A DNA stretch of 32,000 bases from Candidatus Saccharimonadota bacterium (GCA_049296095.1 JBAQRV010000001.1:180001-212000), one strand, 5' to 3'; counted from the first letter of the stretch, positions 3,566-25,903 are shown. Numbers and translations are program-made. Notes: generated by a model not told the origin, from the sequence alone.

Positions 3566-3943
3566 TCATTTTACCTCATATTTCATGAATTTGCTAGCTT
3601 CTACGCTGATTGAATTGCGGTTTTCTATCTCTTTCCATGGAAAAAGAAATTGCTTTCCATCTGCAACGAAGACATAAAGAAGGTCAAATGCATCCACGCT
3701 ATACTTCTTGGCCGTATAATAGGATTGATTACCTCCCATAGTACGTAGAGCTGCCATGTGCTTGTTTGTGCCCTTATAGTATCCTGCATATTTGACTTGA
3801 ACCCGAAACAAGCAATTATCGATTTCAGCAATGAGATCATACTTTCGCTTGTCACCGATAGGTAGGCAGACTTCATACCCGTTAGTTATGAAGTAAGATA
3901 TTGCATGCGCAACAGCCAAATCACCCTTCTCTTTTGGTTTCAT
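3566..3943 (-). CDS. small PD-(D/E)xK endonuclease resembling the I-Ssp6803I type of group I intron homing endonuclease
   Basis: Pattern KGDLAVAHAISYFITNGYEVCLPIGDKRKYDLIAEIDNCLFRVQVK matches the D...(D/E)xK core (YDLI ... VQVK) of the small PD-(D/E)xK family that includes I-Ssp6803I. This is recalled family resemblance, not a database search. I prefer the M6 start (3943) because the upstream codons lie inside a perfect 14-bp hairpin. Confidence 0.6.
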   Translation of the reverse strand: MKPKEKGDLAVAHAISYFITNGYEVCLPIGDKRKYDLIAEIDNCLFRVQVKYAGYYKGTNKHMAALRTMGGNQSYYTAKKYSVDAFDLLYVFVADGKQFLFPWKEIENRNSISVEASKFMKYEVK

Positions 3944-11758: not shown

Positions 11759-11833
11759 AGGGGCATAGTACAACGGTTAGTACGTGGGTCTCCAAAACCT
11801 GAGATCGTGGTTCGATTCCACGTGCCCCTGCCA
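11759..11833 (+). tRNA. tRNA-Trp (anticodon CCA), CCA encoded, intact
   Basis: AGGGGCA TA GTAC AACGGTTA GTAC G TGGGT CTCCAAA ACCTG AGAT CGTGG TTCGATT CCACG TGCCCCT G CCA. The anticodon stem contains two G.U wobble pairs. Confidence 0.92.
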
Positions 11834-13013: not shown

Positions 13014-13225
13014 TGCGAACCTCCTTGGAATAAAAAAGGACAACCTATCTCTAGGCTGTCTAGGTCAGCAACAGATTTGCATCCATTGTTTTCGAGAATA
13101 AGTTGCCCCTTCTCGGATACAAATAAAAAACTGATGCTGAAACCTAGACAAGGGTATTATAGCTTACTGATAAATTCTTAGCAAAAAGCAGTTATTTAAG
13201 TAGTTTTGCTATATAATACAATCAA

Positions 13226-14662
13226 ATGCGAGGAAGTACAGTGAGCGATGATAATTGGTCTACGGAGTCACTTGAGATTGGGTCTCTTTTACTATGGGAT
13301 GAGAATTCACGATTTCCTGACAAATACTTCGAAAAGCCCGAACAGGATTTAATCAACTTCTTTCTCTCAAGAAAGAGTTTTAAGCTCCCGTCGTTCACCG
13401 AAGAAATTGTGAACGAGATAGACGTTCCCCAAATTGAAAGAATCGTAGTTCTACGAGATGGCGAACGTAATATAGTTGTCGAGGGCAACCGACGATTGAC
13501 TGCATACAAACTACTCGCCAACCCGGAACTTGCGAAAGGCGATAAGAATTTCGCTCATTTTGAAGCTTTATCTAAAAGGGCTAACATCGATAGTACTTTT
13601 GCCGTTGAAGCCGCAGTCACAACTATTAAAGCGCAAGCCGATCGAGTTGTTGAACGTAAACACATGAAATCTAATAATGAAATTGGGTGGGGTGATTCGG
13701 AGCGTGCACATCATAGCGCACGAAAAGGCCAAGCAAACCGACAAACACAAACCAAAGTAGCAATCGCAAGAGAACTTAAAAAAACGGGACTAAGTGAATC
13801 CTTAATTGACCAGGTACTTGGTCCGGGCTACGTCACAACATTTCAACGTATTATGTCTGGCAGTGCAGCAGCTGAAATCTTTGAATACGAGATTGCAGAC
13901 GGAGGAGAACTCCAGGTCAGCGATTCATCATTCCTTGATAAGCTTCGCGTTGTGGCATTAAATGTTTTAGAAAAACAATCTTACGATGGACAAGAAATCA
14001 ATTCTCGAACCCTTAATAAGAATGAAGACATTAAAGAATACCTTGATGGTATAGGTGATAAACAGATAAAATCTGCGGCTGAAACAATCGAAAAAGCTAC
14101 CGGCACAAACCTTCTAGGCGAGACGACAATCACACTTGAAGGCAAGGATAAGAAAAAGACACCTCGCACTTCTGCAAGGAAATATCTAATTCCCGGTAGT
14201 TGTATTTTGCAAATTGACGGAGCAAATAAAATTAATAACATCTACTATGAACTCCAAAAAACAATTATTTTAGATGATAGCAAGCAAGCAAGCCCGAATG
14301 CGGCCGCAGTATTATTCCGTGTCTTTCTCGAGACAAGCCTTGATTACTATCTTGAGAAGCAAGGGCAGACCGTAAAACAAGACGATACTATATCATCCAA
14401 AATCCCACTTGTAGTTACTAGTATGCAAAAGTCGAACGACAACCTTCCCGCAAAGTTTTTCACAAATATTAATACCGTTGCAAGTGCAAAACCCGAGGTT
14501 AGCATTCTCTCTATTGTTAACTTTCATCAATACGTTCACTCACACTCAACTCAACCCCTCTCAAACGATCTTAAGACAGCCTGGGATAAGCTTCAGCCTT
14601 TTTTTGAGTACTTATGGGATTCATTGCATAAGCAATATACTGCAAAAAGTGAAAAAAGGTAG
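13226..14662 (+). CDS. ParB/sulfiredoxin-fold N-terminal domain protein with a long uncharacterised C-terminal region
   Basis: LLLWDENSRFP and IVVLRDGERNIVVEGNRRLTAYKLL resemble the ParB N-terminal (ParBc) motifs. The remaining ~350 aa have no motif I can name. Start is either ATG 13226 (8 nt after TATAAT 13212-13217) or GTG 13241 (preceded by GAGGAA). Confidence 0.6.
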   Translation: MRGSTVSDDNWSTESLEIGSLLLWDENSRFPDKYFEKPEQDLINFFLSRKSFKLPSFTEEIVNEIDVPQIERIVVLRDGERNIVVEGNRRLTAYKLLANPELAKGDKNFAHFEALSKRANIDSTFAVEAAVTTIKAQADRVVERKHMKSNNEIGWGDSERAHHSARKGQANRQTQTKVAIARELKKTGLSESLIDQVLGPGYVTTFQRIMSGSAAAEIFEYEIADGGELQVSDSSFLDKLRVVALNVLEKQSYDGQEINSRTLNKNEDIKEYLDGIGDKQIKSAAETIEKATGTNLLGETTITLEGKDKKKTPRTSARKYLIPGSCILQIDGANKINNIYYELQKTIILDDSKQASPNAAAVLFRVFLETSLDYYLEKQGQTVKQDDTISSKIPLVVTSMQKSNDNLPAKFFTNINTVASAKPEVSILSIVNFHQYVHSHSTQPLSNDLKTAWDKLQPFFEYLWDSLHKQYTAKSEKR

Positions 14663-14679
14663 TATTCTTGTCTTAAGGT

Positions 14680-15546
14680 ATGATAAAACCAAAAGCACAA
14701 AGAAAACACCTTTATACACCACTTAGATACCCCGGCGGTAAAACTTCATTATTTGAATTTTTTGCAAACGTCTTCATTGCGCATAAATGGAAACACCTTA
14801 CCTACGTAGAGCCGTACGCTGGAGGGGCAGGAGCTGCTCTTTCACTATTGATATTAGGGCATGTAGATAAAATCATTATTAATGACTTTGATAAAGCCGT
14901 ATTTTCTTTCTGGGATTCAATAATCCACAGAACCGACGAGTTCGTTGACCTTATCCGAGAAACCCCAATAACGATCGACGAGTGGTCGAAGCAGAAGTTA
15001 ATTCATAAAGCAGGAGATCACACAGATCCATTAGCTTTGGGTTTTGCAACGTTTTACTTAAACCGAACCAACCGCTCAGGAATACTAAATGGAGGCCCGA
15101 TAGGTGGTCATTCTCAAGGTGGAGAGTGGAAACTTGACGCACGTTATAAAAAAGAAAAACTTATTGAGAAAATAGAGCTGATTGCATCTTATAGAGATAA
15201 GATAACTATTCTAAATGATGATGGTATCGATGTTATTAAAAAATATGCTCATAAAAAAGAAGTGTTCATGTACGTTGATCCTCCATACTTTGTTAAGGGG
15301 GCAAATCTTTACTTAAATGCATTCAAGATTGCTGACCATGAAAAATTAGCACAAACTCTCAAAGATGCGCGTAACACAAAGTGGCTCTTAAGTTATGACA
15401 AAGAGCAAGAAATTTTGGATTTATACAAAGACATGAAATACGAAGTCTTTTCGTTAAAATATTCAGTTCACCATAATACACGATTGGGATCGGAGGTGAT
15501 GATCTTTTCAGACTCAATCGAAAAAGAGCTCATCGACATTCTATAG
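14680..15546 (+). CDS. D12-class N6-adenine DNA methyltransferase (Dam-like)
   Basis: N-terminal LRYPGGK (AdoMet motif), FYLNRTNRSG, and catalytic VDPPYF (DPPY). Lies 17 nt downstream of the ParB-like gene. Confidence 0.85.
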   Translation: MIKPKAQRKHLYTPLRYPGGKTSLFEFFANVFIAHKWKHLTYVEPYAGGAGAALSLLILGHVDKIIINDFDKAVFSFWDSIIHRTDEFVDLIRETPITIDEWSKQKLIHKAGDHTDPLALGFATFYLNRTNRSGILNGGPIGGHSQGGEWKLDARYKKEKLIEKIELIASYRDKITILNDDGIDVIKKYAHKKEVFMYVDPPYFVKGANLYLNAFKIADHEKLAQTLKDARNTKWLLSYDKEQEILDLYKDMKYEVFSLKYSVHHNTRLGSEVMIFSDSIEKELIDIL

Positions 15547-16257
15547 GTTAGGTATTTCGACGGAGTCGCTACTAACAGTCACATTCTTAACCTTCATTTC
15601 CTTAGTAGCATTTATGAGGGTATCGACGTGATATGCAATTCCAAATTCAATTATTCTACTTATCGTTTCTTTTAACTGCAGTTTCTCGTCTTCATACTCT
15701 ATAACCTCAGAAGCGACGACCCTTGCGCTTTTACTACCAATCGCCATACCCACAACTTTAACACCATTATGATAGGTCAGTATTGGTGAGCCAGATAGAC
15801 CTTCAATGATAGCAAACGGTAACGTTAATGCCGCGTGTTCGCTATGGATTGCATTACGGAAATTTACAATCTTACCACCAAAATAGCCATCTTGCGTGGT
15901 GACATTATTCTCGTGCTCATTAAAGAAACCCATCGAGTACACATCCTCTCCCACTTTTAGGTCGTAAGGACTTAAAAAAGGAATGTACTCCTTTCGTTTA
16001 TCATTAAAAGCATTCGGGAGGATAGCTATATCTAGATTCGGGTCTTTAGGGTAATTAACTTCTCCCACAGGGAAAAGCTTCTTACTCTCCTCGTCAAACA
16101 CAGCAAGATACTCGTCTTTTTCGAATGAAACGTCTACTACATGTCGGCATGTCATTAAGGTGCCCCCTGGTGCGATAGGAAACGCCGTGCCTAGATAATA
16201 AGATGGCTTTTGTCCAGCCGCCTTATAGAGTCTATAGAAAAATTTACTTTTTATCAT
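15541..16257 (-). CDS. cytoplasmic trypsin/chymotrypsin-fold serine protease
   Basis: Candidate catalytic triad contexts TCRHVV (His), LDIAIL (Asp) and GLSGSPIL (Ser, GDSGGP-like). No signal peptide. The ATG lies 2 nt after the stop of the upstream nuclease gene. The 3' end overlaps the methylase 3' end by 6 nt in convergent orientation. Confidence 0.7.
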   Translation of the reverse strand: MIKSKFFYRLYKAAGQKPSYYLGTAFPIAPGGTLMTCRHVVDVSFEKDEYLAVFDEESKKLFPVGEVNYPKDPNLDIAILPNAFNDKRKEYIPFLSPYDLKVGEDVYSMGFFNEHENNVTTQDGYFGGKIVNFRNAIHSEHAALTLPFAIIEGLSGSPILTYHNGVKVVGMAIGSKSARVVASEVIEYEDEKLQLKETISRIIEFGIAYHVDTLINATKEMKVKNVTVSSDSVEIPNL

Positions 16258-16259
16258 CG

Positions 16260-16937
16260 TTAAATTGACCTTACTTTGTATACTTTTTTGTTTAATAAGT
16301 GCGGTTCAAAGCGAAAAGCGTTATGAAGAGCTAAATCTCTTCCGCATGGTAAATCAATAAAAAATCCTTTTTTGTATTTATATTCATTAGCCTCAACTAA
16401 AGTGAGTAGTTTCACAAGATCATATAACCTTGATTCTTTTAGATGATTGGTACTTTTCTTTGCTTCAATAACAATATAATTATCAGTTGTTCCTCGCTTA
16501 TGTACGATAATGTCGGGGTATATTGTTTTCAAAAGTTCGCCACCATCTCGTAACCTTAAAACAAACGACACAAGATCAAATTCTTCATCATAAACTAAAT
16601 TTTCTGGATCAAGCAGCTGATTGCGAAGATAATCTACGTCATCAAGCGTAATATCTTCGTGTGCAAGAATATCAAGATTCAGACTCTTCTTGTTAAAACT
16701 TTTAGACAGATCGAGCAAACTGGCCATTCTGTGTAAAAAATCAAAGGGACTAATCGTAATGCTTTTTGGACCCGACAAGTTACGATTGAACTCACAGTCG
16801 ACATGCCACTCTGGGTACATTCTTTGAAGGTGCTCAGCGAGTTTGTGTGTAATTGAACGCTCACTCACATCTTCCCGCAGTAAGTAAGCATCGTGTTTCA
16901 CGAGCTTTTTGAGCGAGGAGTTCAAGCTTTTCTTCAT
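16260..16937 (-). CDS. PD-(D/E)xK superfamily nuclease (restriction-endonuclease-like)
   Basis: SERSITHKLAEHLQRMYPEWHVDCEFNR followed by IYPDIIVHKRGTTDNYIVIEAKK (PD...ExK core). I prefer the start at M22 (16937), which has a TATAAT box 10 nt upstream on the minus strand. Confidence 0.7.
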   Translation of the reverse strand: MKKSLNSSLKKLVKHDAYLLREDVSERSITHKLAEHLQRMYPEWHVDCEFNRNLSGPKSITISPFDFLHRMASLLDLSKSFNKKSLNLDILAHEDITLDDVDYLRNQLLDPENLVYDEEFDLVSFVLRLRDGGELLKTIYPDIIVHKRGTTDNYIVIEAKKSTNHLKESRLYDLVKLLTLVEANEYKYKKGFFIDLPCGRDLALHNAFRFEPHLLNKKVYKVRSI

Positions 16938-16989
16938 GTTAAGGTTTATTATATAGACTTTGGAGAATATTAGAGTATTGTTGTCCTTG

Positions 16990-18252
16990 ATGGACCTCAA
17001 ATACGCCCTCTACGCACGCAAATCCACCGAGTCGGACGAACGACAGGCGATGAGCATTGATTCACAGGTCAAAGAGATGATGGCGGTAGCGGAACGAGAG
17101 GGCATTACCGTCCAAGCCATCAAGCGAGAAAGTCATTCAGCAAAGCAATCGGCCACCCGGCCGATTTTTCTTGAGCTGGTCGAAGATCTTCGGACAGGGA
17201 AGTACGACGCGTTGCTGACCTGGGCACCGGATCGACTGTCGCGCAATGCGGGAGACCTCGGAGCGCTGGTGGATCTTATGGACGCCGGCAAGCTTCAGGA
17301 GATCCGAACCTACGGGCAAAGCTTTCGCAATAACCCGAATGAGAAGTTCCTGCTCATGATCCTCTGTTCACAGGCAAAGTTAGAGAATGACAACAAAGGA
17401 ATCACCATTAAGCGCGGTATGAGGGCTCGTGCGGCGCTTGGATGGCGTCCAGGCAATATTCCCATCGGATACCTCAATAGATCGCTAAATGGACGCAAGG
17501 ACATCGTTATCGATCCGGAGCGAGCTGAGATTATCAAAGAGATTTTTGAACGAGTGGCCGTACAAAAGCACTCGGGAAGGCAAGTGAAGCGGTGGCTAGA
17601 TGAAATGGATTTTAGATCGAAGCGGGGGAGCCTACTGTCGCTCAGCCAGGTATACAATATCCTTAGCAATAACTTCTACTTCGGAGAGTTCGAATACCCG
17701 AAAGGTGGCGAGCTCAGAATCGGAACGCACCAACCCCTCGTCACGAAAGAAACGTTCTTAGCTGCGAGGCGAACCATCGATGAGCAGAGAGTAAACCGAA
17801 CCGAATGGGGCTCACGGGTGTTACCTTACCGAAAAGTCTTCGTCTGCGGAGCGTGCGGTAACCATATGACCGTCGAGCAACAAGAAAGATATATCTACTA
17901 CCGATGCTCCGGCTATACCAAGGAAAAGGGAAGGTGCGACAATCCATCGCTGAGCTACGAAGAAATCGTCAGGCAAACTATCACCAGTGCCAACAAAGGT
18001 GTCATTAAAAGAACTTCATTCATCCAAACTTTTAATATGCTCATAGACGAGCACTACAGGGTAACCGTTTCGATAATGGAGAAGAAGGGGATACAACACA
18101 GCTCGAACACGCGGCTTCGTGACTATATAAATTACGTGTTCACCGTCGGAAGCATCGAACAGCAGGAAGAGGTATTCAGGAACCTTCTCGTAACCCCGGC
18201 AATCACGAATAAGAAGATCATTTTTATAAAGGTAGTCAGTATGGACACCTAG
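16990..18252 (+). CDS. large serine recombinase (resolvase/invertase N-terminal domain + recombinase domain + zinc ribbon)
   Basis: YALYARKSTESDERQAMSIDSQ (catalytic Ser context), LLTWAPDRLSRN, and a Cys cluster CGACGNHM...YYRCSGY...RCDN. I prefer the start at MDLKY (16990). Divergent from the nuclease gene with a 52-nt spacer. Confidence 0.8.
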   Translation: MDLKYALYARKSTESDERQAMSIDSQVKEMMAVAEREGITVQAIKRESHSAKQSATRPIFLELVEDLRTGKYDALLTWAPDRLSRNAGDLGALVDLMDAGKLQEIRTYGQSFRNNPNEKFLLMILCSQAKLENDNKGITIKRGMRARAALGWRPGNIPIGYLNRSLNGRKDIVIDPERAEIIKEIFERVAVQKHSGRQVKRWLDEMDFRSKRGSLLSLSQVYNILSNNFYFGEFEYPKGGELRIGTHQPLVTKETFLAARRTIDEQRVNRTEWGSRVLPYRKVFVCGACGNHMTVEQQERYIYYRCSGYTKEKGRCDNPSLSYEEIVRQTITSANKGVIKRTSFIQTFNMLIDEHYRVTVSIMEKKGIQHSSNTRLRDYINYVFTVGSIEQQEEVFRNLLVTPAITNKKIIFIKVVSMDT

Positions 18253-18304: not shown

Positions 18305-18574
18305 ATGAGAGAAGATATAAAAACACGGGCGGTACATCGTTTAAAAATTGTCGAAGGTCAGATTCGCGGTCTACAGAAAATGGTCGAAGATGATAAGTAC
18401 TGTATCGACATTATCACTCAGGCGTCAGCAATAAAAGAAGCGTTATCGAGTATTGAAGATATGTTATTAGAAAACCATTTGAGTACTCATGTCATTCACC
18501 AGATAAGAAGTGGTAACGAGGCGCAAGCAACCGATGAGATCTTGAAAGTATACAAACTAAAGCGGAAAAAGTAA
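18305..18574 (+). CDS. csoR: CsoR/RcnR-family metal-sensing transcriptional repressor
   Basis: RLKIVEGQIRGLQKMVEDDKYCIDIITQASAIKEAL is the canonical DUF156/CsoR pattern. 89 aa. Confidence 0.85.
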   Translation: MREDIKTRAVHRLKIVEGQIRGLQKMVEDDKYCIDIITQASAIKEALSSIEDMLLENHLSTHVIHQIRSGNEAQATDEILKVYKLKRKK

Positions 18575-18595
18575 TGAGGGATTTAGGGGGATTTT

Positions 18596-20836
18596 ATGAC
18601 TAAATACGTATGTCCAATGCACTCAGATGTTACCAGTGACAAGCCCGGGGCATGTTCAAAATGCAACATGGATTTAGCACCGATTGATGATACAGAAGAA
18701 AAGCTGCTCGATCATCATAGTCATGAGAGCGGACATCGCGATAACAAGGCATTTCAATCAGATACGCGGTACGCTTGCCCCATGCACCCTGATGTAAGTT
18801 CGAACAAGCCAGGCATATGTCCAAAATGTCACATGGCTTTAGAAAAGACGAAATTGCAACCACTAAACGAATACGGTCATGAAAAACACGCAGGCCATAG
18901 TCCTAATATGTTCAAAAAAAAGTTTTGGCTGAGTCTACTCCTAACTATACCTACGCTGCTATTCTCGCATACCGTTCAGAGCTGGCTTGGTTTTGAGCTA
19001 ATATTCCCCGGTAGTCAGTACGTCCCTGCTATTTTCGGAACAATTATCTTTTTCTATGGCGGCTTAGTGTTCCTAAAAGGAGCCCGCGGCGAGCTTGCGG
19101 CTAAACGGCCCGGTATGATGACTCTGATTTCGATGGCGATTACCGTTGCGTTTATCTACAGCACCCTCGTAACATTCAGGCTCGTTAGTGGTATGGACTT
19201 CTGGTGGGAGCTCGCCACATTAGTAACGATCATGCTACTCGGCCACTGGCTGGAAATGGCATCAGTAGAAAGCGCACAAGGTGCATTAAAGGAGCTAGCG
19301 AAGCTACTGCCCGATGAGGCAGAGTTACTTGAACACGATAAAAGCCGTACTGTCTCCGTAAGCCAACTAAAAGTTGGTGATATAATACTCGTTCGCCCTG
19401 GGGCCCAAGTGCCTGTAGACGGAATCGTCACAAAGGGCGAATCAGAAATTAATGAGTCAATGCTCACGGGCGAATCGAAACCAGTAAAAAAAGTGGTTGG
19501 GGCCGATGTCATTGGTGGCACGATTAACACAAACGGTGCTCTCACCATCGAAGTGGCGAAGGTAGGTAGCAATACGGCACTAGCTGGCATCATGAAGCTA
19601 GTTGAAGATGCCCAGACAAGCAAGTCGAAAACACAAGAACTTGCAGACAGAGCAGCCTTTTATCTTACTTTTATTGCACTTGGTGCTGCTCTGCTCACAT
19701 GGGTAGGATGGTGGCTTGCTGGAGCATCCTCTGGATTTATTTTTGAACGAGTCGTGACGGTATTGGTGATTGCTTGTCCGCACGCTCTCGGCTTAGCGAT
19801 TCCGCTTGTGACGGCTATATCTACGACACTCGCAGCTAAGAATGGCCTGCTCGTGCGTGAGCGGATAGCACTTGAGTCAGCCCGCAATATCGATGTCGTG
19901 CTGTTTGATAAAACAGGAACACTCACAAAGGGCGAGCAGGGCGTCGTCGATGTTATCACTAAAAACAAAAGCCTCACCCTCAGCCTTGCTGCCGCACTTG
20001 AGCGTGAGTCAGAGCATCCGATTGCAAAGGCAATTTTCCAATATGCATACAGTCAAAATGTGCCAGAAACCCACATCACTGACTTTACGGCACTCTCTGG
20101 TCGCGGTGTACGAGCTAAGGTGAGTGGAAAAAGCGTCTATATCGGCGGACCAAGACTACTCGAAGAGCTGAACATTAAACTAGACAATGAGTTACAAAAA
20201 GCCACCGACAAATCTTCAACCGAGGGAAAAACTGTCGTGTTCGTCATCAAGGATAAGGCGGTACTTGGTGCTATCATGCTTGCCGATGTTATTCGTGAAG
20301 AATCAAAAGAAGCCGTTGCGACTCTTCACCATATGGGCAAGCGCGTCGCTATGTTGACGGGTGATAATAAGGGCGTGGCGGCATGGGTAGCTGGTGAGCT
20401 TGGCATTAAAGAATACTTCGCGGAAGTATTGCCGGAGCATAAAGCTGAGACGGTTAAGAAATTACAGGCTGACGGTAGCAGTGTAGCAATGGTAGGTGAT
20501 GGTGTGAACGATGCACCAGCATTGACACAAGCTAATATTGGAATTGCTATCGGCGCGGGCACGGATGTAGCGATTGAGTCTGCTGGAATCGTGCTGGCGA
20601 GTAGTGATCCGCGTGGTGTGGCCAAAATTGTAACGCTCTCAAAGCATGCCTATAGTAAGATGTTCCAAAACTTAGCCTGGGCAACAGGCTACAATGCTTT
20701 GGCCATTCCATTGGCTGCTGGAGTTACCTCGGCGTTAGGATTCGTTCTTTCACCAGCATTAGGTGCTGTCCTAATGTCGCTCTCGACGATTATTGTCGCT
20801 ATTAATGCACAGCTACTGAGACGAATAAGATTATAA
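18596..20836 (+). CDS. copB: copper-translocating P1B-type ATPase (CPH motif, CopB-like) with two N-terminal CPMH...C..C metal-binding modules
   Basis: DKTGTLT, GDGVNDAP, TGES and transmembrane CPH (VIACPHALGLA). The N-terminus has two repeats: YVCPMHSDVTSDKPGACSKCNMDL and YACPMHPDVSSNKPGICPKCHMAL. Confidence 0.9.
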   Translation: MTKYVCPMHSDVTSDKPGACSKCNMDLAPIDDTEEKLLDHHSHESGHRDNKAFQSDTRYACPMHPDVSSNKPGICPKCHMALEKTKLQPLNEYGHEKHAGHSPNMFKKKFWLSLLLTIPTLLFSHTVQSWLGFELIFPGSQYVPAIFGTIIFFYGGLVFLKGARGELAAKRPGMMTLISMAITVAFIYSTLVTFRLVSGMDFWWELATLVTIMLLGHWLEMASVESAQGALKELAKLLPDEAELLEHDKSRTVSVSQLKVGDIILVRPGAQVPVDGIVTKGESEINESMLTGESKPVKKVVGADVIGGTINTNGALTIEVAKVGSNTALAGIMKLVEDAQTSKSKTQELADRAAFYLTFIALGAALLTWVGWWLAGASSGFIFERVVTVLVIACPHALGLAIPLVTAISTTLAAKNGLLVRERIALESARNIDVVLFDKTGTLTKGEQGVVDVITKNKSLTLSLAAALERESEHPIAKAIFQYAYSQNVPETHITDFTALSGRGVRAKVSGKSVYIGGPRLLEELNIKLDNELQKATDKSSTEGKTVVFVIKDKAVLGAIMLADVIREESKEAVATLHHMGKRVAMLTGDNKGVAAWVAGELGIKEYFAEVLPEHKAETVKKLQADGSSVAMVGDGVNDAPALTQANIGIAIGAGTDVAIESAGIVLASSDPRGVAKIVTLSKHAYSKMFQNLAWATGYNALAIPLAAGVTSALGFVLSPALGAVLMSLSTIIVAINAQLLRRIRL

Positions 20837-20844
20837 GGAGGCGT

Positions 20845-21780
20845 ATGCACAACGAACACGAACATCATCATGATACAGAGACAGTTGATATACCAGCAGA
20901 CCGAAGGGCGATTTGTCCTGTAACAGGAGATGTCATCGATACGGCGGTTGCTGATAAGCTCGGACATTTCAGGGACGTGGATGACAAACGAATCTATTTC
21001 TGTTGCGCTACGTGCGTACAACTATTCGATAAATCCCCCGAACAATATACAGACCATCACCTTGGCCACGAACATCACCATCATATTCCAACAACAGGGA
21101 TACTACGTTTGAAGGAAAAAGAACATCTGATAGATAACGTCTGGGCCTTTCGTTTCACTGCTGATCAGCAGGTATTGTGGACTCCGGGACAATTTATCCG
21201 CGTTGAAATCCCTCACGATAATCCCGACAAAGAAGGCACAAAACGATGGTTTACCATCTCATCAACGCCGCATGACGGCTTTATTCAAATCACCACTCGT
21301 GTTACCAAAACGACATTCAAGCAAGCATTAGCTACCCTTGAAGTCGGAGACGATGTGCAACTCATCGAGCGACCAGACGGTGATTTTGTCTGGCAAGAAA
21401 GTGATAAGCCCCTTGTATTTGTTGCGGGCGGCATCGGCATCACCCCTTTTTATAGTATGTTAAAAGCACGCGGTCATAGTGGACAACCAGTGTCAGCGAC
21501 ACTTATCTATAGTGGTCGAACTGATGATTTGCCATTTAAGGCAGAGTTCGACGAAGCAAGTAAGCGTCATCCAGAGTTTACGGTGTACTATGTCATTGGT
21601 GAACCGCTGGCTGCTGATAAACTTACCGAGCTCGTGCCAGACCTTAATTCATCACAAGTCTATATTTCAGGTCCAGAGCCAATGGTAGAGGCAATCGGCA
21701 AGCAGTTAAAAAAGAATGGGATTACTGACGACTCTCTTCATCAGGACTTCTTCCCCCATTACAGCGAAGAGACTTACTAG
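20845..21780 (+). CDS. His-rich + YHS-domain fusion to an FNR-type FAD/NAD(P)-binding oxidoreductase
   Basis: N-terminal HNEHEHHHD, a YHS-like CPVTGDVID...YFCCATCVQLF, a second His run HLGHEHHHH, then RWFTISSTP (RxYS-type FAD motif) and GGIGITPF (NAD(P) motif). Confidence 0.7.
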   Translation: MHNEHEHHHDTETVDIPADRRAICPVTGDVIDTAVADKLGHFRDVDDKRIYFCCATCVQLFDKSPEQYTDHHLGHEHHHHIPTTGILRLKEKEHLIDNVWAFRFTADQQVLWTPGQFIRVEIPHDNPDKEGTKRWFTISSTPHDGFIQITTRVTKTTFKQALATLEVGDDVQLIERPDGDFVWQESDKPLVFVAGGIGITPFYSMLKARGHSGQPVSATLIYSGRTDDLPFKAEFDEASKRHPEFTVYYVIGEPLAADKLTELVPDLNSSQVYISGPEPMVEAIGKQLKKNGITDDSLHQDFFPHYSEETY

Positions 21781-21819
21781 AAATATGACTCTTTGTATAA
21801 ATTACGGTAAAATAGAGGT

Positions 21820-22194
21820 ATGAAACGAGTTTTTCACGGGGTCATTTCCGTATTTATTCTTACAGTTCTTAGTGCGCTGTCGTTAGGTATACATGCAGCT
21901 GCCGTGCAAACGATGAGCATGGGACACTCAATGGGCGGCGTCTCTCATCAGGCGAGTTCGTCTAGTTGTTTTACGTCCTGCATGACAGCAACTGTCCGTA
22001 AAGACGAAATCCTCAAGGAAACCAATAAAGACGAGGATGACAAGCCGCAGCCTCCGTTTTATGTCCAATTTCAGGCTTCTTCGCTCTTAGCTCTCAAGGA
22101 AGCTCATAATCAAGAAACCAGGGTTGCTATAGAAAAAGAACCGCCTCCTAGGGCGACACCCGCCTACATCAGCTTGGGCGTCTTTCGCGCTTGA
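21820..22194 (+). CDS. signal-anchored hypothetical protein with a Met/His-rich segment
   Basis: N-terminal hydrophobic segment followed by MSMGHSMGGVSHQ. Located inside the copper cluster. Confidence 0.45.
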   Translation: MKRVFHGVISVFILTVLSALSLGIHAAAVQTMSMGHSMGGVSHQASSSSCFTSCMTATVRKDEILKETNKDEDDKPQPPFYVQFQASSLLALKEAHNQETRVAIEKEPPPRATPAYISLGVFRA

Positions 22195-22241
22195 GATTAG
22201 CTACTTACGAATATCGTTAAATAGCTAATTTAGGAGTACCC

Positions 22242-22904
22242 ATGAACAACAAGAAATTATTTACAATCATTGCCGTTGTGCTTGTACTAGCAATTGCTGG
22301 CGCCGCACTATACTACGGCCTGCGAGGTAATACGGATAACATGTCTGGTATGAATATGGACGGTTCTACAAACAATAACTCGCTTGTTGACACCAATAGT
22401 GACACGTACAAACAATATGCAGCCATGAGCGGCGAGACCTATGATCGTAACTTTATAGCAAATATGATCGCCCATCACCAAGGCGCGGTTGATATGGCAA
22501 AATTGGCTCTTACGAACGCCAAGCACCAAGAGCTAAAAGATATGGCAAACGATATCATCTCGGCTCAGGAGGCAGAGATTGCAGAGATGACATCATGGCA
22601 AAAAGACTGGGGATACCCATCGACTAGTTCTGACAACATGATGGATCATGGTGCGATGGGGATGATGGATGATATGGCTAACATGACTACTGAGCTTGAG
22701 GGCAAGACGGGCGATGAATTTGACAAAGCCTTTATAGAGCAGATGATCATGCATCACCAATCGGCTATTGATATGGCTGCACCAGGCGAGCAGAACGCCC
22801 AACATCAGGAAGTAAAGGATCTCACGAAAGCGATTGTTGCTGCGCAAACAAAAGAAATCCAGCAAATGAAACAGTGGCAACAAGAGTGGGGTTATGAAAA
22901 TTAG
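22242..22904 (+). CDS. DUF305-family protein (copy 1)
   Basis: N-terminal TM/signal and two repeats of the DUF305 pattern (FIANMIAHHQGAVDMA, FIEQMIMHHQSAIDMA). AGGAG SD upstream. Confidence 0.8.
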   Translation: MNNKKLFTIIAVVLVLAIAGAALYYGLRGNTDNMSGMNMDGSTNNNSLVDTNSDTYKQYAAMSGETYDRNFIANMIAHHQGAVDMAKLALTNAKHQELKDMANDIISAQEAEIAEMTSWQKDWGYPSTSSDNMMDHGAMGMMDDMANMTTELEGKTGDEFDKAFIEQMIMHHQSAIDMAAPGEQNAQHQEVKDLTKAIVAAQTKEIQQMKQWQQEWGYEN

Positions 22905-23412
22905 AACATTTCCTATTGTACTCGCAGTCATCGCGGTTGGGTTCACAGGCACTATCGTGGCAGTAAAATTGAACGGGCCTCCAGAACCACCACGTCCAGG
23001 TACCGAGCAGAGCGATAATGGTCGTGAGCACGTTGACAGTAAAGAGTATGGTGGTGATCAACCGCCAACCTCTGGTCCTCATGCTAGCCCACTTGCGTGG
23101 GGTGTGTACGGTACCGAAGTCCGTGATGATCAGGTAATCCATAATATGGAGCACGGCGGAATATACGTGTCGTATAGGCCGGATCTACCTCAAAACGAGA
23201 TAGCAAAACTGCAAGCTCTGCTGTCTGAACCCTACTCTAATCCCGAGTTTAAACCAACCAAAATAGTACTTGCACCACGAACTGCAAATGCATCACCAAT
23301 CGAGCTGAGTTCATGGCAAAGAAACGAAAAACTACAGACGTATGATCAAGCAAAGGTCGAGGAATATATAAAGAGAAATCTGGGTAAAAGTCCAGAGCCA
23401 CTTGCGCGCTAG
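22894..23412 (+). CDS. DUF3105-family protein
   Basis: TM anchor, then PPTSGPH ... HNMEHGGIYVSY, which is characteristic of DUF3105. Overlaps the upstream stop by 11 nt. Confidence 0.7.
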   Translation: MKIRTFPIVLAVIAVGFTGTIVAVKLNGPPEPPRPGTEQSDNGREHVDSKEYGGDQPPTSGPHASPLAWGVYGTEVRDDQVIHNMEHGGIYVSYRPDLPQNEIAKLQALLSEPYSNPEFKPTKIVLAPRTANASPIELSSWQRNEKLQTYDQAKVEEYIKRNLGKSPEPLAR

Positions 23413-23452
23413 GCAAGATTATAATTAATCAGAAAGTAGGATAAAATATAGT

Positions 23453-24124
23453 ATGAGAAAAAAGCATAGGAATAGAAATAATAACAAGCTGCTCATAGGA
23501 GGTATTGCCATACTCACTATAGCTGCTGCGGTTATCTGGTATTTTGCATTTTTTTCTGTCAAACCTGAGGCGACAGTATCAAGCAATACAGATAGTGTGA
23601 ATACGAGTGATGAAGAAGCTAATAGCAGTAATAAATTCGCTAACTTAAAAGGTGATGCATTCGACGAAGCTTATATAGCTGACATGCTGGCGCATAATGA
23701 AGGCGCACTTAGTATGGCCGAACAAGCCGGACCCGTCGTAGCACACGAAGAAATCCTCACGCTGACCAGCAATATCCTACAGACGCAGGGTATGGAAATA
23801 GTACAAATGAAGGAGTGGCAGAAAGTGTGGGGGTATAAAGAAACGATGAGCGGAGGCCATATGAGCCACGGCAGTGCTGGTATGGATACGGGCGGTGATA
23901 TGGTCGAAATGATGAATAAGTTGAAGGGTTTAGAGGGAGAGGCATACGACAAGGAGTTCTTAAAACAAATGACTATTCATCATGAGCAGGCCATTGAGAT
24001 GTCGCGGTATGCTAATACCAATGCAAAGCACCAAGAGATCAAAGACCTTGCTAAAAACATCATTGAAGCACAGACAGCAGAAATCAATCAGATGAAACAG
24101 TGGCAGCAAGAGTGGGGATATTAA
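23453..24124 (+). CDS. DUF305-family protein (copy 2)
   Basis: Same two-repeat architecture (YIADMLAHNEGALSMA, FLKQMTIHHEQAIEMS). The C-terminal QMKQWQQEWGY is shared with copy 1. Confidence 0.8.
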   Translation: MRKKHRNRNNNKLLIGGIAILTIAAAVIWYFAFFSVKPEATVSSNTDSVNTSDEEANSSNKFANLKGDAFDEAYIADMLAHNEGALSMAEQAGPVVAHEEILTLTSNILQTQGMEIVQMKEWQKVWGYKETMSGGHMSHGSAGMDTGGDMVEMMNKLKGLEGEAYDKEFLKQMTIHHEQAIEMSRYANTNAKHQEIKDLAKNIIEAQTAEINQMKQWQQEWGY

Positions 24125-24783
24125 CTAGCATCTTTTTTTCTTGAGGGTGGAATGTTAAAGTCGCTCATTACCTGAAGTATAAGACCCGGTATAAGAATAA
24201 TGCCAAGGAACCACCACCAGACAGCAAAATAGGCAGTATTAAGACTCGTACCAACCGTAAGGCTATGGACGAAGATCGCCAGCATTGCTAGCGCCTGCAG
24301 GAGGCCCACAAACGGCCATACACCGAAATTAATAAGTTTACGGCGAAAAGGTTTTAAAACTTCGTAGAGCAGAAAGGATGTAAGGGCAGCTACGGCTAAG
24401 CCAATTGCCCATGCACGAAGCGGACCAACGTACGTGATGTAACTCTCCGGCGGTAGTAAGTTCGTGTCGAGAAAGCGCTGAACAAGAAAGAGAGTGGGGT
24501 GCATCAATATGAGCAATAGCGCAATCCGTCCTATCCAAGTGCTATATTGCACCTTGAAGAGACCCGTTTTATTTATCAATGCTGCTGTATATTGAGACCA
24601 TATTGCCACAAAAGCAAGTGTTCCTAGATAGGGGAAAAGTTCATACGTTGAACTGATAATACCGTCAGATGCAAAGAACTGTAACAACACTGTCGTAATT
24701 GAAGTAAACCCAAACAGGATCCAGATCGTGAATTGCTTTAAAGACAAAGTCGCCACATAACAAGTATACTTAAAAAGGAGCAT
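24121..24783 (-). CDS. polytopic membrane protein with intramembrane histidines (possible b-type haem / ferric-reductase-like TM protein)
   Basis: About six hydrophobic helices, with His residues inside helices (LILMHPTLF, IFVHSLTV). The start is uncertain: the longest ORF (to 24804) would overlap the divergent cyt-b5 gene start. Confidence 0.45.
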   Translation of the reverse strand: MLLFKYTCYVATLSLKQFTIWILFGFTSITTVLLQFFASDGIISSTYELFPYLGTLAFVAIWSQYTAALINKTGLFKVQYSTWIGRIALLLILMHPTLFLVQRFLDTNLLPPESYITYVGPLRAWAIGLAVAALTSFLLYEVLKPFRRKLINFGVWPFVGLLQALAMLAIFVHSLTVGTSLNTAYFAVWWWFLGIILIPGLILQVMSDFNIPPSRKKDAS

Positions 24784-24788
24784 AAGAA

Positions 24789-25184
24789 ATGAAAAAACGT
24801 ACACTAGCCATAATAATTATCGGTGTGTTAGTAATTATTATCGGATTGGGTATTTGGGCTATTGTCAGTAAGCAATCACAACCAAATTCTAATACTAAGA
24901 CAGAGCAGCCAACAGGCAGCTGGACAGCGGATGAAGTAGCCCAGCACTCTTCAAAGAGTGATTGCTGGACAATTATCGCCGACAGTGTTTATAACTTAAC
25001 CACATTTATCAATCGTCACCCTGGAGGTGATGAAATCCTCCGAGCATGTGGAACTGATGCAACGATGCTATTCACCTCTCGCCAAACAAATGATGGTCAA
25101 CCTATCGGCTCAGGCTCCCCGCACAGCCAAACCGCCTATGAACAACTTGCTGAATTCAAAATTGGCACACTCTCGAAAGAATAA
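24789..25184 (+). CDS. membrane-anchored cytochrome b5-like haem-binding domain protein
   Basis: AAGGAG SD and an N-terminal TM helix. The core motif is WTADEVAQHSSKSDCWTIIADSVYNLTTFINRHPGGDEIL (the HPGG motif of cyt b5). Confidence 0.75.
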   Translation: MKKRTLAIIIIGVLVIIIGLGIWAIVSKQSQPNSNTKTEQPTGSWTADEVAQHSSKSDCWTIIADSVYNLTTFINRHPGGDEILRACGTDATMLFTSRQTNDGQPIGSGSPHSQTAYEQLAEFKIGTLSKE

Positions 25185-25283
25185 TCGAAAACTACTGACG
25201 AGTTTTGGAGACCTAAACACTTAACTATCCTAACTTCACTTTCCGCCATACGATTATCAGATAAAGAATGAGTGTCCATTATA

Positions 25284-25344
25284 GGTTAGTACATAGGTCT
25301 CCAAAACCTAGGATCGTGGTTCGATTCCACGTGCCCCTGCCAAG
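25284..25344 (+). pseudogene. 5'-truncated tRNA-Trp copy (right-hand direct repeat of the island)
   Basis: Matches tRNA-Trp from the D-loop (GGTTAGTAC) to CCAAG, 57/61 identical. There is no AGGGGCA 5' acceptor strand or 5' D-stem upstream, so no cloverleaf can form. Confidence 0.8.
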
Positions 25345-25361
25345 CTTAAGCATTATGAAAA

Positions 25362-25384
25362 AGTCTCCGATTCGGAGGCTTTTT
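25362..25384 (+). terminator. intrinsic terminator, member of the GTCTCC...GGAGGC hairpin family (T1)
   Basis: AGTCTCCG-att-CGGAGGCT followed by TTTT. The T-run runs directly into an extended -10 (TGtTATGAT). Confidence 0.7.
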
Positions 25385-25399
25385 GTTATGATTATACTG

Positions 25400-25903
25400 A
25401 TGAAAATATTTCTCACCGGCGAACCTCATAGCGGAAAATCTACTCTTATTAATAAAATACTCTCACATTTTGATGACAAGATTGGTTTTGTGACAAACGA
25501 AGTCTTAGAAAATGGAGAACGAAAAGGTTTTGAGCTGACTTCATCAATAGGTGTTAAGGCCATGTTTGCAAGTACGGAATACACTTCCGCCATTCGTGTC
25601 TCAAAGTACGGTATTGAGATTAGTATTTTAGACAAGTTTCTAGAAGGCCTTCCCCTAATCAATCAAAGTGCTCTCCTATATATCGATGAAGTGGGACAGA
25701 TGCAACTGCACTCAGATACTTTTTCTAAAATCGTCGATGATTATATTTCTGCTCCAAATAACTTTATTGGAACATTGAGTAAAGTGTATGACCACGAGCT
25801 AATACAAAAGCTTAGGCAGAATTCTGAAATAGAAGTAATTGAAGTCACACCAGAAAACAGAGACGTACTAGAAAACGTGATAAGTTCGAAGCTCATCCAC
25901 TAG
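25400..25903 (+). CDS. small P-loop NTPase (THEP1/NTPase_1-like)
   Basis: MKIFLTGEPHSGKSTLINKIL (Walker A) and LLYIDEVGQMQL (Walker B), ~167 aa. The upstream part of the tracked ORF is translation through the tRNA remnant and terminator. Confidence 0.7.
   Translation: MKIFLTGEPHSGKSTLINKILSHFDDKIGFVTNEVLENGERKGFELTSSIGVKAMFASTEYTSAIRVSKYGIEISILDKFLEGLPLINQSALLYIDEVGQMQLHSDTFSKIVDDYISAPNNFIGTLSKVYDHELIQKLRQNSEIEVIEVTPENRDVLENVISSKLIH

Follow-up and report, generated by a model that had tools for sequence, protein, structure and literature searches.

A probable defence islet joining a PD-lambda-5 gene pair and a separate nuclease-protease operon on a mobile Saccharibacterial island

Four AT-rich genes lie side by side at positions 13,226 to 16,937 of a contig segment from a Candidatus Saccharimonadota bacterium (GCA_049296095.1, JBAQRV010000001.1:180001-212000), and their arrangement raises the question of whether they act as one defence system or are neighbours of separate origin. 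The analysed stretch of 32,000 nucleotides (nt) is referred to as the window, and positions are counted from its first letter. A gene for a ParB-like protein (component A) and a gene for a D12 methylase (component B) form one pair, which converges on a second pair encoding a PD-(D/E)xK nuclease and a serine protease (Table 1). The initial annotation recognised no named defence system in this combination. The first two genes, however, match the two components of PD-lambda-5 over their full length; the cassette is not one new system, because its core is already named. We consider it probable, with good confidence, that the locus combines a PD-lambda-5 pair with a separate nuclease-protease operon of independently mobile genes, and that together they make up a defence islet on a mobile island. 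The host is a Saccharibacterium, Candidatus Microsaccharimonas sp., as named by exact matches to database proteins. The proposal draws on observed homologies, catalytic motifs, gene architecture and co-occurrence statistics, and among the possibilities first considered for the locus, that of independent systems gathered in a defence islet comes closest to this evidence.

PD-lambda-5 was isolated from E. coli ECOR7 as two genes of 2461 bp annotated as “ParB/HEPN, methyltransferase” (Vassallo 2022, PMC9519451). Component A of the window matches the PADLOC profile PD-Lambda-5_A (PDLC03998) at 3.1e-68, with residues 13-465 aligned to positions 4-465 of the 466-position profile, and is matched by 23 additional PD-Lambda-5_A profiles; it also matches phrog_9592 at 1.2e-36. 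Component B matches PD-Lambda-5_B (PDLC04018) over its full length at 1.6e-110 and Pfam MethyltransfD12 (PF02086) at 5.5e-20, and its translation contains the DPPY motif and the S-adenosylmethionine-binding motif EPYAGGAG (AGGAG). The score of B against the NCBIfam dam subfamily is 61.8 bits, compared with a cut-off of 114.85, and B is therefore not a Dam orthologue. By its motifs, B is a predicted D12-class N6-adenine DNA methyltransferase, and genes 1 and 2 together are, as judged from sequence, a clear homologue of the PD-lambda-5 family. The A family comprises 519 homologues with about 45% identity across Bacteroidota, the candidate phyla radiation (CPR) and archaea. The A-to-B adjacency is kept at 36-88% identity in all inspected loci, namely L003, L132, L133, L134, L136 and L138. 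A scan of viral contigs returned 0 PD-lambda-5A loci, and plasmid and phage collections contain only distant relatives with 22-28% identity.

The domain structure of A was approached through both profiles and models. Pfam and NCBIfam did not detect a ParB domain in A, even across 28 homologues at E ≤ 1, and a sequence search of the PDB with the A-protein profile returned nothing useful. The AlphaFold2 model, made with 28 homologues, has a predicted local distance difference test score (pLDDT) of 81.8. Its N-terminal region (about residues 10-230), in which an EGNRRL box is invariant, assumes a ParB/GmrSD_N fold; it is matched by Foldseek to ParB/Noc/KorB in the PDB with a probability of about 1 and an E value of 4e-3, and to ParB/GmrSD_N proteins among viral models with E values of 2e-6 to 1e-3. 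The predicted structure thus supports the ParB-like N-terminal domain that was originally proposed for A, whereas detection by Pfam hidden Markov models (HMMs) does not. The C-terminal helical domain (about residues 330-478) contains invariant R365, E369 and H438 and a nearly invariant H434.

The E. coli system provides the functional background. PD-lambda-5 was validated there as a two-gene system, and its phage protection is unusually broad (PMC9519451, Table S1). Cloning required a delta-mrr host, which indicates that the methylase of the prototype is active, and the discoverers read the system as “compacted RM+Abi” (PMC9519451).

The unity of the four genes was assessed with a co-occurrence table that covers all 138 fetched loci. 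Outside the window, the full arrangement is confined to near relatives. L132 encodes A, B and the protease with 88%, 84% and 89% identity, respectively, and keeps the same 6-nt stop overlap, but has no nuclease; its protease gene is preceded by an unrelated gene and a 115-nt spacer with a TATAAT-like element just before the start codon. L133 contains A (87%), B (85%) and the C-terminal half of the protease, and L123 contains the N-terminal half of the protease, the nuclease (75%) and the recombinase (52%), with the 2-nt gap between nuclease and protease kept. L133 and L123 derive from a single sample, and both break off at one and the same residue of the protease; combined, the two loci probably give the full five-gene order of a second organism. 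The near relatives share 73-78% nucleotide identity and 75-92% amino-acid identity with the window, and the flanks differ in L132 and L133. This level of nucleotide identity, combined with differing flanks, indicates that the block is mobile and that its conservation is explicable by recent common descent. Beyond the near relatives and L003, the table contains no association. PD-lambda-5 pairs at 55-62% identity (L134, L136 and L138) occur without protease or nuclease and have unrelated genes next to them. Elsewhere, protease and nuclease are thus not conserved together with the methylase pair, an outcome that the initial annotation had itself named as refuting and that speaks largely against a four-gene unit.

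These relatives also bear on the possibility that three or all four genes form an obligate system. The protease, alone or together with the nuclease, would then be a functional part of a PD-lambda-5 variant and might, for example, activate or degrade A or the nuclease on infection. The arrangement of A, B and a convergent protease with an identical stop overlap in L132 and L133 fits such a system, as do the 2-nt nuclease-protease coupling in L123 and the common break point of L133 and L123. Nevertheless, the relatives are so close that their shared gene order can be simple descent. PD-lambda-5 pairs at 36-62% identity never have the protease (L003, L134, L136 and L138), PD-lambda-5 is absent from 48 of 48 other protease loci, and L132 is without the nuclease. 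We regard an obligate multi-gene system as very unlikely; it could hold only for the narrow clade with the shared arrangement.

The nuclease has no Pfam family and matches PADLOC PD-Lambda-3_A at 1.8e-26 in two stretches that are split by an insert of ~75 amino acids (aa). In an alignment of 36 homologues, the residues E26, R27, H31, D47, C48, E49, P141, D142, E158 and K160 do not vary, in agreement with the PD-(D/E)xK assignment made at the outset, and the predicted catalytic site is a classical PD...ExK (P141-D142, E158-A-K160). Forms of ~225 aa, found mostly in CPR, have the ~75-aa helical insert, which is missing from forms of 150-190 aa. The AlphaFold2 model (pLDDT 88) contains a beta-sheet core of the restriction-endonuclease-like type. 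Its fold matches in the PDB are weak (E ≥ 0.03); the top ten include five PD-(D/E)xK nucleases (Can2, PfoI, a Cas4-like protein, Card1 and AddB), interleaved with aldehyde dehydrogenases. By these features, the protein is a long form of the PD-lambda-3A family.

The neighbourhoods of the nuclease were compared in 80 genome loci with relatives (L001-L080), and both tblastn and the family HMM found the protease in none of the 80. Type I hsdS lies directly downstream of the nuclease in 16 of the 80 loci, with hsdM upstream in 8-9 of those. The literature searched yielded no description of this embedding in type I restriction-modification (R-M) operons. Other tight neighbours are diverse conflict-system proteins, such as a TPR-PIN giant in L009 and a small Rx4H protein in L005. 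The viral contig scan gave two distant nuclease loci, and the plasmid and phage collections gave one marginal nuclease match.

Two of these loci deserve separate description. In L003:3217-8874 (Candidatus Sungiibacteriota, JACQRW010000008.1), hsdM, PD-lambda-5A (36%), PD-lambda-5B (42%), the nuclease (50%) and hsdS follow one another on a single strand, overlapping or separated by tiny gaps, such that the PD-lambda-5 pair and the nuclease are situated inside a type I R-M operon; this is the sole other meeting of PD-lambda-5 with a PD-lambda-3A-like nuclease. In L001:5795-7675 (Saccharibacteria UBA7683), a DndB/DpdB-like protein with the motif VIDGQHRI (Pfam DndB 4e-11, PADLOC DpdB 8e-16) ends 3 nt before a long-form nuclease of 52% identity and represents a second kind of ParB-fold protein coupled to the nuclease. 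The idea that the nuclease has a recurrent ParB-fold partner was set aside: only L001 (with its DGQHR motif), L003 and the window qualify, and the proteins upstream of the nuclease in L002 and L004 are unrelated to one another and to PD-lambda-5A.

The convergence of a methylase gene and a nuclease gene with an intact PD...ExK motif had suggested a type II R-M system, in which the D12 methylase guards host DNA against the nuclease while the ParB-like protein and the protease are accessories. The position of the L003 nuclease directly downstream of a PD-lambda-5B-type methylase is in keeping with such a system. It implies co-inheritance of methylase and nuclease, but a PD-lambda-5B-type methylase is present in only one of 81 other nuclease loci (L003). 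The commonest partners of the nuclease are type I hsdM and hsdS, and MethyltransfD12 is outside the 25 most frequent Pfam families of its immediate neighbours. Conversely, methylase and ParB-like gene stay coupled in seven of seven loci, and the methylase occurs without the nuclease in L132, L134, L136 and L138. The protease gene also sits between methylase and nuclease in the window, and in E. coli the two PD-lambda-5 genes function with no nuclease of this kind (PMC9519451). A type II R-M system is therefore the least credible of the explanations considered, and we give it almost no weight.

The same neighbourhoods leave room for another proposal, namely that the PD-lambda-3A-type nuclease family is a plug-in back-up effector of DNA-modification immunity and that the protease, whose gene lies 2 nt from that of the nuclease and stop-to-stop against that of the methylase, couples the nuclease to the state of the PD-lambda-5 module, which would make the cassette a genuine multi-layer unit. 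The family may have such a role: it occurs within type I R-M operons, adjoins PD-lambda-5 pairs in the window and in L003, which represent two distant CPR lineages, and follows the DndB/DpdB-like protein in L001. We consider this proposal unlikely.

The protease matches Pfam Trypsin_2 (PF13365) at 5.5e-11 with 43.8 bits against a cut-off of 27.6. H39 (TCRHV), D76 and S155 (GLSGSP) are invariant in 36 protease sequences. Hydropathy made neither a signal peptide nor a transmembrane segment apparent, the 19-residue maximum being below 1.6. The chymotrypsin-fold protease without signal peptide that the initial annotation had noted is thus recovered, and the protein is predicted to be a stand-alone cytoplasmic serine protease of the S1 type (clan PA) with an intact triad. 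Past the Trypsin_2 domain, a C-terminal extension (residues about 170-238) contains invariant R179, E184, D190, E197, R201, E204 and G206 and belongs to no assigned family. In an exhaustive profile search the family proved small, with 76 clusters at ≤1e-30 and 252 at ≤1e-10, and almost all members are stand-alone proteins of 225-250 aa. Weak matches (3e-13 to 1e-7) link it to protease domains in PADLOC, namely PDC-M35A, RT-protease XI, LmuA and HamA; a literature search for “PDC-M35” found no papers, and a sequence search of the PDB with the protease profile gave nothing useful.

No common partner emerged among the protease neighbours from BLAST clustering, Pfam or PADLOC; they range from housekeeping genes (FeoB, YchF) to R-M, HEPN, GIY-YIG, SNase and integrase genes. 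The nuclease is absent from 42 of 42 protease metagenome loci. Even closer homologues, with 57-69% identity, occur in differing settings: alone in L124 (beside an EcoRI-type methylase and a GmrSD/HNH protein), L126, L129 and L130 (among metabolic genes), and after a recombinase in L131. The viral contigs contain 0 protease loci, and no protease was found in the plasmid and phage collections. In L129:161-4501, the protease homologue (67% identity) is followed by small open reading frames (ORFs), an MC6-like protein and a DUF2326 protein; this set resembles an ABC-three-component conflict system, of which the protease could be the effector.

These settings also decide how much weight can be given to a self-contained two-gene module of nuclease and protease, active in abortive infection or as a toxin independently of PD-lambda-5, in which the protease would process or control the nuclease. 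The 2-nt gap and common orientation are kept in L123, and both domains recur as defence effectors (PD-lambda-3A for the nuclease; LmuA, HamA and RT-protease in PADLOC for the protease). Still, the pairing is confined to the window and one near relative, and the surveys centred on either gene (0 of 80 and 0 of 42) did not recover it. The protease gene of L132 follows an unrelated gene and its own spacer, and the remaining close homologues are alone or follow a recombinase. The suggestion of a protease-regulated nuclease, already raised in the initial annotation, accordingly has local backing in L123 and none in the loci elsewhere, and such a module appears improbable.

For the PD-lambda-5 pair and the separate operon proposed here, a mechanism can be outlined, of which we infer the biochemical activities, the methylation-based discrimination of self from non-self and the defence role of nuclease and protease. 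The D12 methylase would mark host DNA at adenine, and the ParB-fold protein A would be the effector on infecting, unmarked DNA; the conserved C-terminal domain of A may add an abortive-infection activity. The nuclease gene and then the protease gene would be read as a separate operon, which combines a PD-lambda-3A-type nuclease with a stand-alone S1-type protease. Each family appears to move independently among defence loci; here they would have been joined beside the large serine recombinase, where they probably supply one or two further layers of defence or abortive infection.

Several points weigh against this proposal. Most related loci are short metagenome contigs, in which a partner could be judged absent only over a few kb. 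PD-lambda-5 adjoins the nuclease family again in a distant lineage, that of L003, and the protease is convergent with the methylase in both L132 and L133; this recurrence and the conserved convergence make some functional link possible. Concerning component A, its C-terminal domain has no Rx4-6H motif, no Pfam match and no sequence match in the PDB, and the HEPN label was not reproduced; the HHpred support of the discoverers for HEPN was itself weak, with 8-36% probability (PMC9519451). Phage protection and an active methylase have been shown only for the E. coli prototype (PMC9519451), and its clone yielded no escape plaques, which is atypical of plain R-M (PMC9519451, Table S1). The literature searched contains only surveys and no mechanistic paper on PD-lambda-5.

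The coordinates of the genes and associated features are summarized in Table 1. The four reading frames are present as first described, with gaps of 17 nt between A and B and of 2 nt (TAA-cg-ATG) between nuclease and protease, both read in the sequence. The 6-nt overlap that was reported between the 3' ends of methylase and protease (15541-15546) has the right length, but consists of two abutting stop codons within the palindrome CTATAG. The mechanical ORF of the nuclease reaches a TTG at 17000, whereas its homologues begin at the ATG; the recombinase start is ambiguous between a TTG at 16960 and the ATG at 16990. The cassette is indeed richer in AT than its surroundings, with a GC content of 39.1% over 13226-16937 compared with 45.5% in the remainder of the window. 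GC at third codon positions is 0.34-0.39 in the four cassette genes and 0.45-0.61 in the neighbours, with the exception of CsoR (0.39).

Table 1. Positions of the cassette genes, island boundaries and candidate promoter elements in the window.
Feature	Position	Strand	Remarks
PD-lambda-5 component A, ParB-like	13226-14662	+	478 aa
PD-lambda-5 component B, D12 methylase	14680-15546	+	288 aa
Chymotrypsin-fold serine protease	15541-16257	-	238 aa
PD-(D/E)xK nuclease	16260-16937	-	225 aa counted from ATG
Large serine recombinase	16990-18252	+	Divergent from nuclease; Pfam Resolvase, Recombinase, Zn_ribbon_recom
TATATAAT, -10-like element	13210-13217	+	8 nt upstream of PD-lambda-5A start codon; putative promoter
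TATATAAT, -10-like element	16948-16955	-	10 nt upstream of nuclease start codon; putative promoter of nuclease-protease operon
tRNA-Trp(CCA)	11759-11833	+	Left boundary (attL side) of island; ARAGORN; Rfam tRNA 63.7 bits
Direct repeat of 3' part of tRNA-Trp	25284-25344	+	57/61 identical; right island boundary; non-functional as tRNA

Elements of the type TATATAAT or TATAAT are situated 8-10 nt upstream of the starts of PD-lambda-5A, the nuclease and the L132 protease (~3797-3802, minus strand). A consensus scan found no enrichment of promoter-like sites, and the two TATATAAT elements of the window are candidate promoters only. The proximity of these -10-like elements to the start codons suggests very short leaders or leaderless transcripts in Saccharibacterial cassettes.

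The cassette was described as part of a tRNA-flanked island, and ARAGORN does call tRNA-Trp(CCA) twice, at 11759-11833 and at 25268-25342. The left call is a real tRNA. The right one has no Rfam tRNA match at the gathering score, and its 5' end cannot form an acceptor stem. Because the right copy shares only the 3' 61 nt of the tRNA and fails the Rfam model, it is an att-type direct repeat, and the two copies bound an island of ~13.5 kb that holds the cassette. The serine recombinase noted next to the cassette is confirmed by its Pfam domains; it matches the phrog_95 integrase at 2.2e-65 and is the sole recombinase within the island. Large serine recombinases seldom leave long att repeats.

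The 52%-identical recombinase copy of L123 adjoins the nuclease, and L131:3771-6723 contains a recombinase with 50% identity to that of the window, followed on its strand after 19 nt by a protease homologue (57%). The neighbours in L131 are a D12 methylase, an SNF2/PLD helicase and an SMC-like ATPase, such that the linkage of recombinase and protease recurs without the nuclease. The large serine recombinase probably serves as the mobility gene for the cassette. The cassette itself is considered mobile because it is AT-rich, because its flanks differ in L132 and L133, and because a serine recombinase is linked with nuclease and protease in L123 and with the protease in L131.

The remainder of the island (18305-25184) encodes a CsoR-type repressor, a CopA P-type ATPase and an FAD/NAD oxidoreductase with a YHS/TRASH motif, together with two DUF305 proteins, a DUF3105 protein and a cytochrome b5-like protein. 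The CsoR/CopA set represents copper or metal-resistance cargo, which is notable in a reduced Saccharibacterial genome. A mechanical ORF at 25268-25903 with NTPase_1 (PF03266) starts within the pseudo-tRNA repeat, and its true start is probably downstream.

The analysis places PD-lambda-5, which was validated in E. coli and is mechanistically unexplained, in an ultra-small episymbiotic Saccharibacterium of the CPR, and describes its family as widespread and well conserved. It further documents two under-described families: the PD-lambda-3A-like nuclease, which is often found within type I R-M operons, and the stand-alone cytoplasmic S1 proteases without a fixed partner. Current concepts of bacterial immunity are unchanged by these results, whose value lies in annotation and in the choice of constructs for mechanistic work on PD-lambda-5. 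If the nuclease were a back-up effector after all, the cassette would be a multi-layer unit and not a chance neighbourhood.

Comparison with known systems places each component in context. The window protease has the same fold and catalytic triad as the LmuA protease (Lamassu), the HamA fusions (Hachiman-type), the UG/Abi RT-protease class XI and PDC-M35A. Unlike these, it is a stand-alone protein of ~240 aa with its own conserved C-terminal extension; it is fused to neither a sensor nor an ATPase and has no constant neighbour.

Accessory defence genes may be embedded between hsdM and hsdS, as in PrrC/RloC-type arrangements. The nuclease family is likewise found upstream of hsdS, often with hsdM upstream of it, in the 16 loci described above. 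In contrast, the window has no type I R-M genes, and its nuclease is of the PD-(D/E)xK type and not an anticodon nuclease.

PD-lambda-3 consists of three genes, for a small PD-(D/E)xK nuclease, an AbiJ_NTD3+HEPN (Hypoth_Ymh) protein and a beta-propeller protein, and acts by abortive infection (Vassallo 2022). The window nuclease is homologous to component A of that system and has the same catalytic motifs; it differs in the ~75-aa helical insert and in its downstream partner, a serine protease. No ORFs for PD-lambda-3 components B and C are present within 12-18.3 kb, and since the second and third genes are absent, the locus is not a PD-lambda-3 system.

The closest likeness is to PD-lambda-5 of E. 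coli ECOR7, although the convergent protease gene that abuts the window pair has no counterpart in the prototype. The likeness is based on PADLOC profiles: both systems consist of two genes in identical order on one strand, an A protein of about 470-500 aa followed by a D12 methylase, and both A proteins combine a ParB-like N-terminus with a poorly assignable C-terminus. Both are also carried on a mobile element, the prototype in an E. coli prophage and the window pair on the island of a CPR Saccharibacterium.

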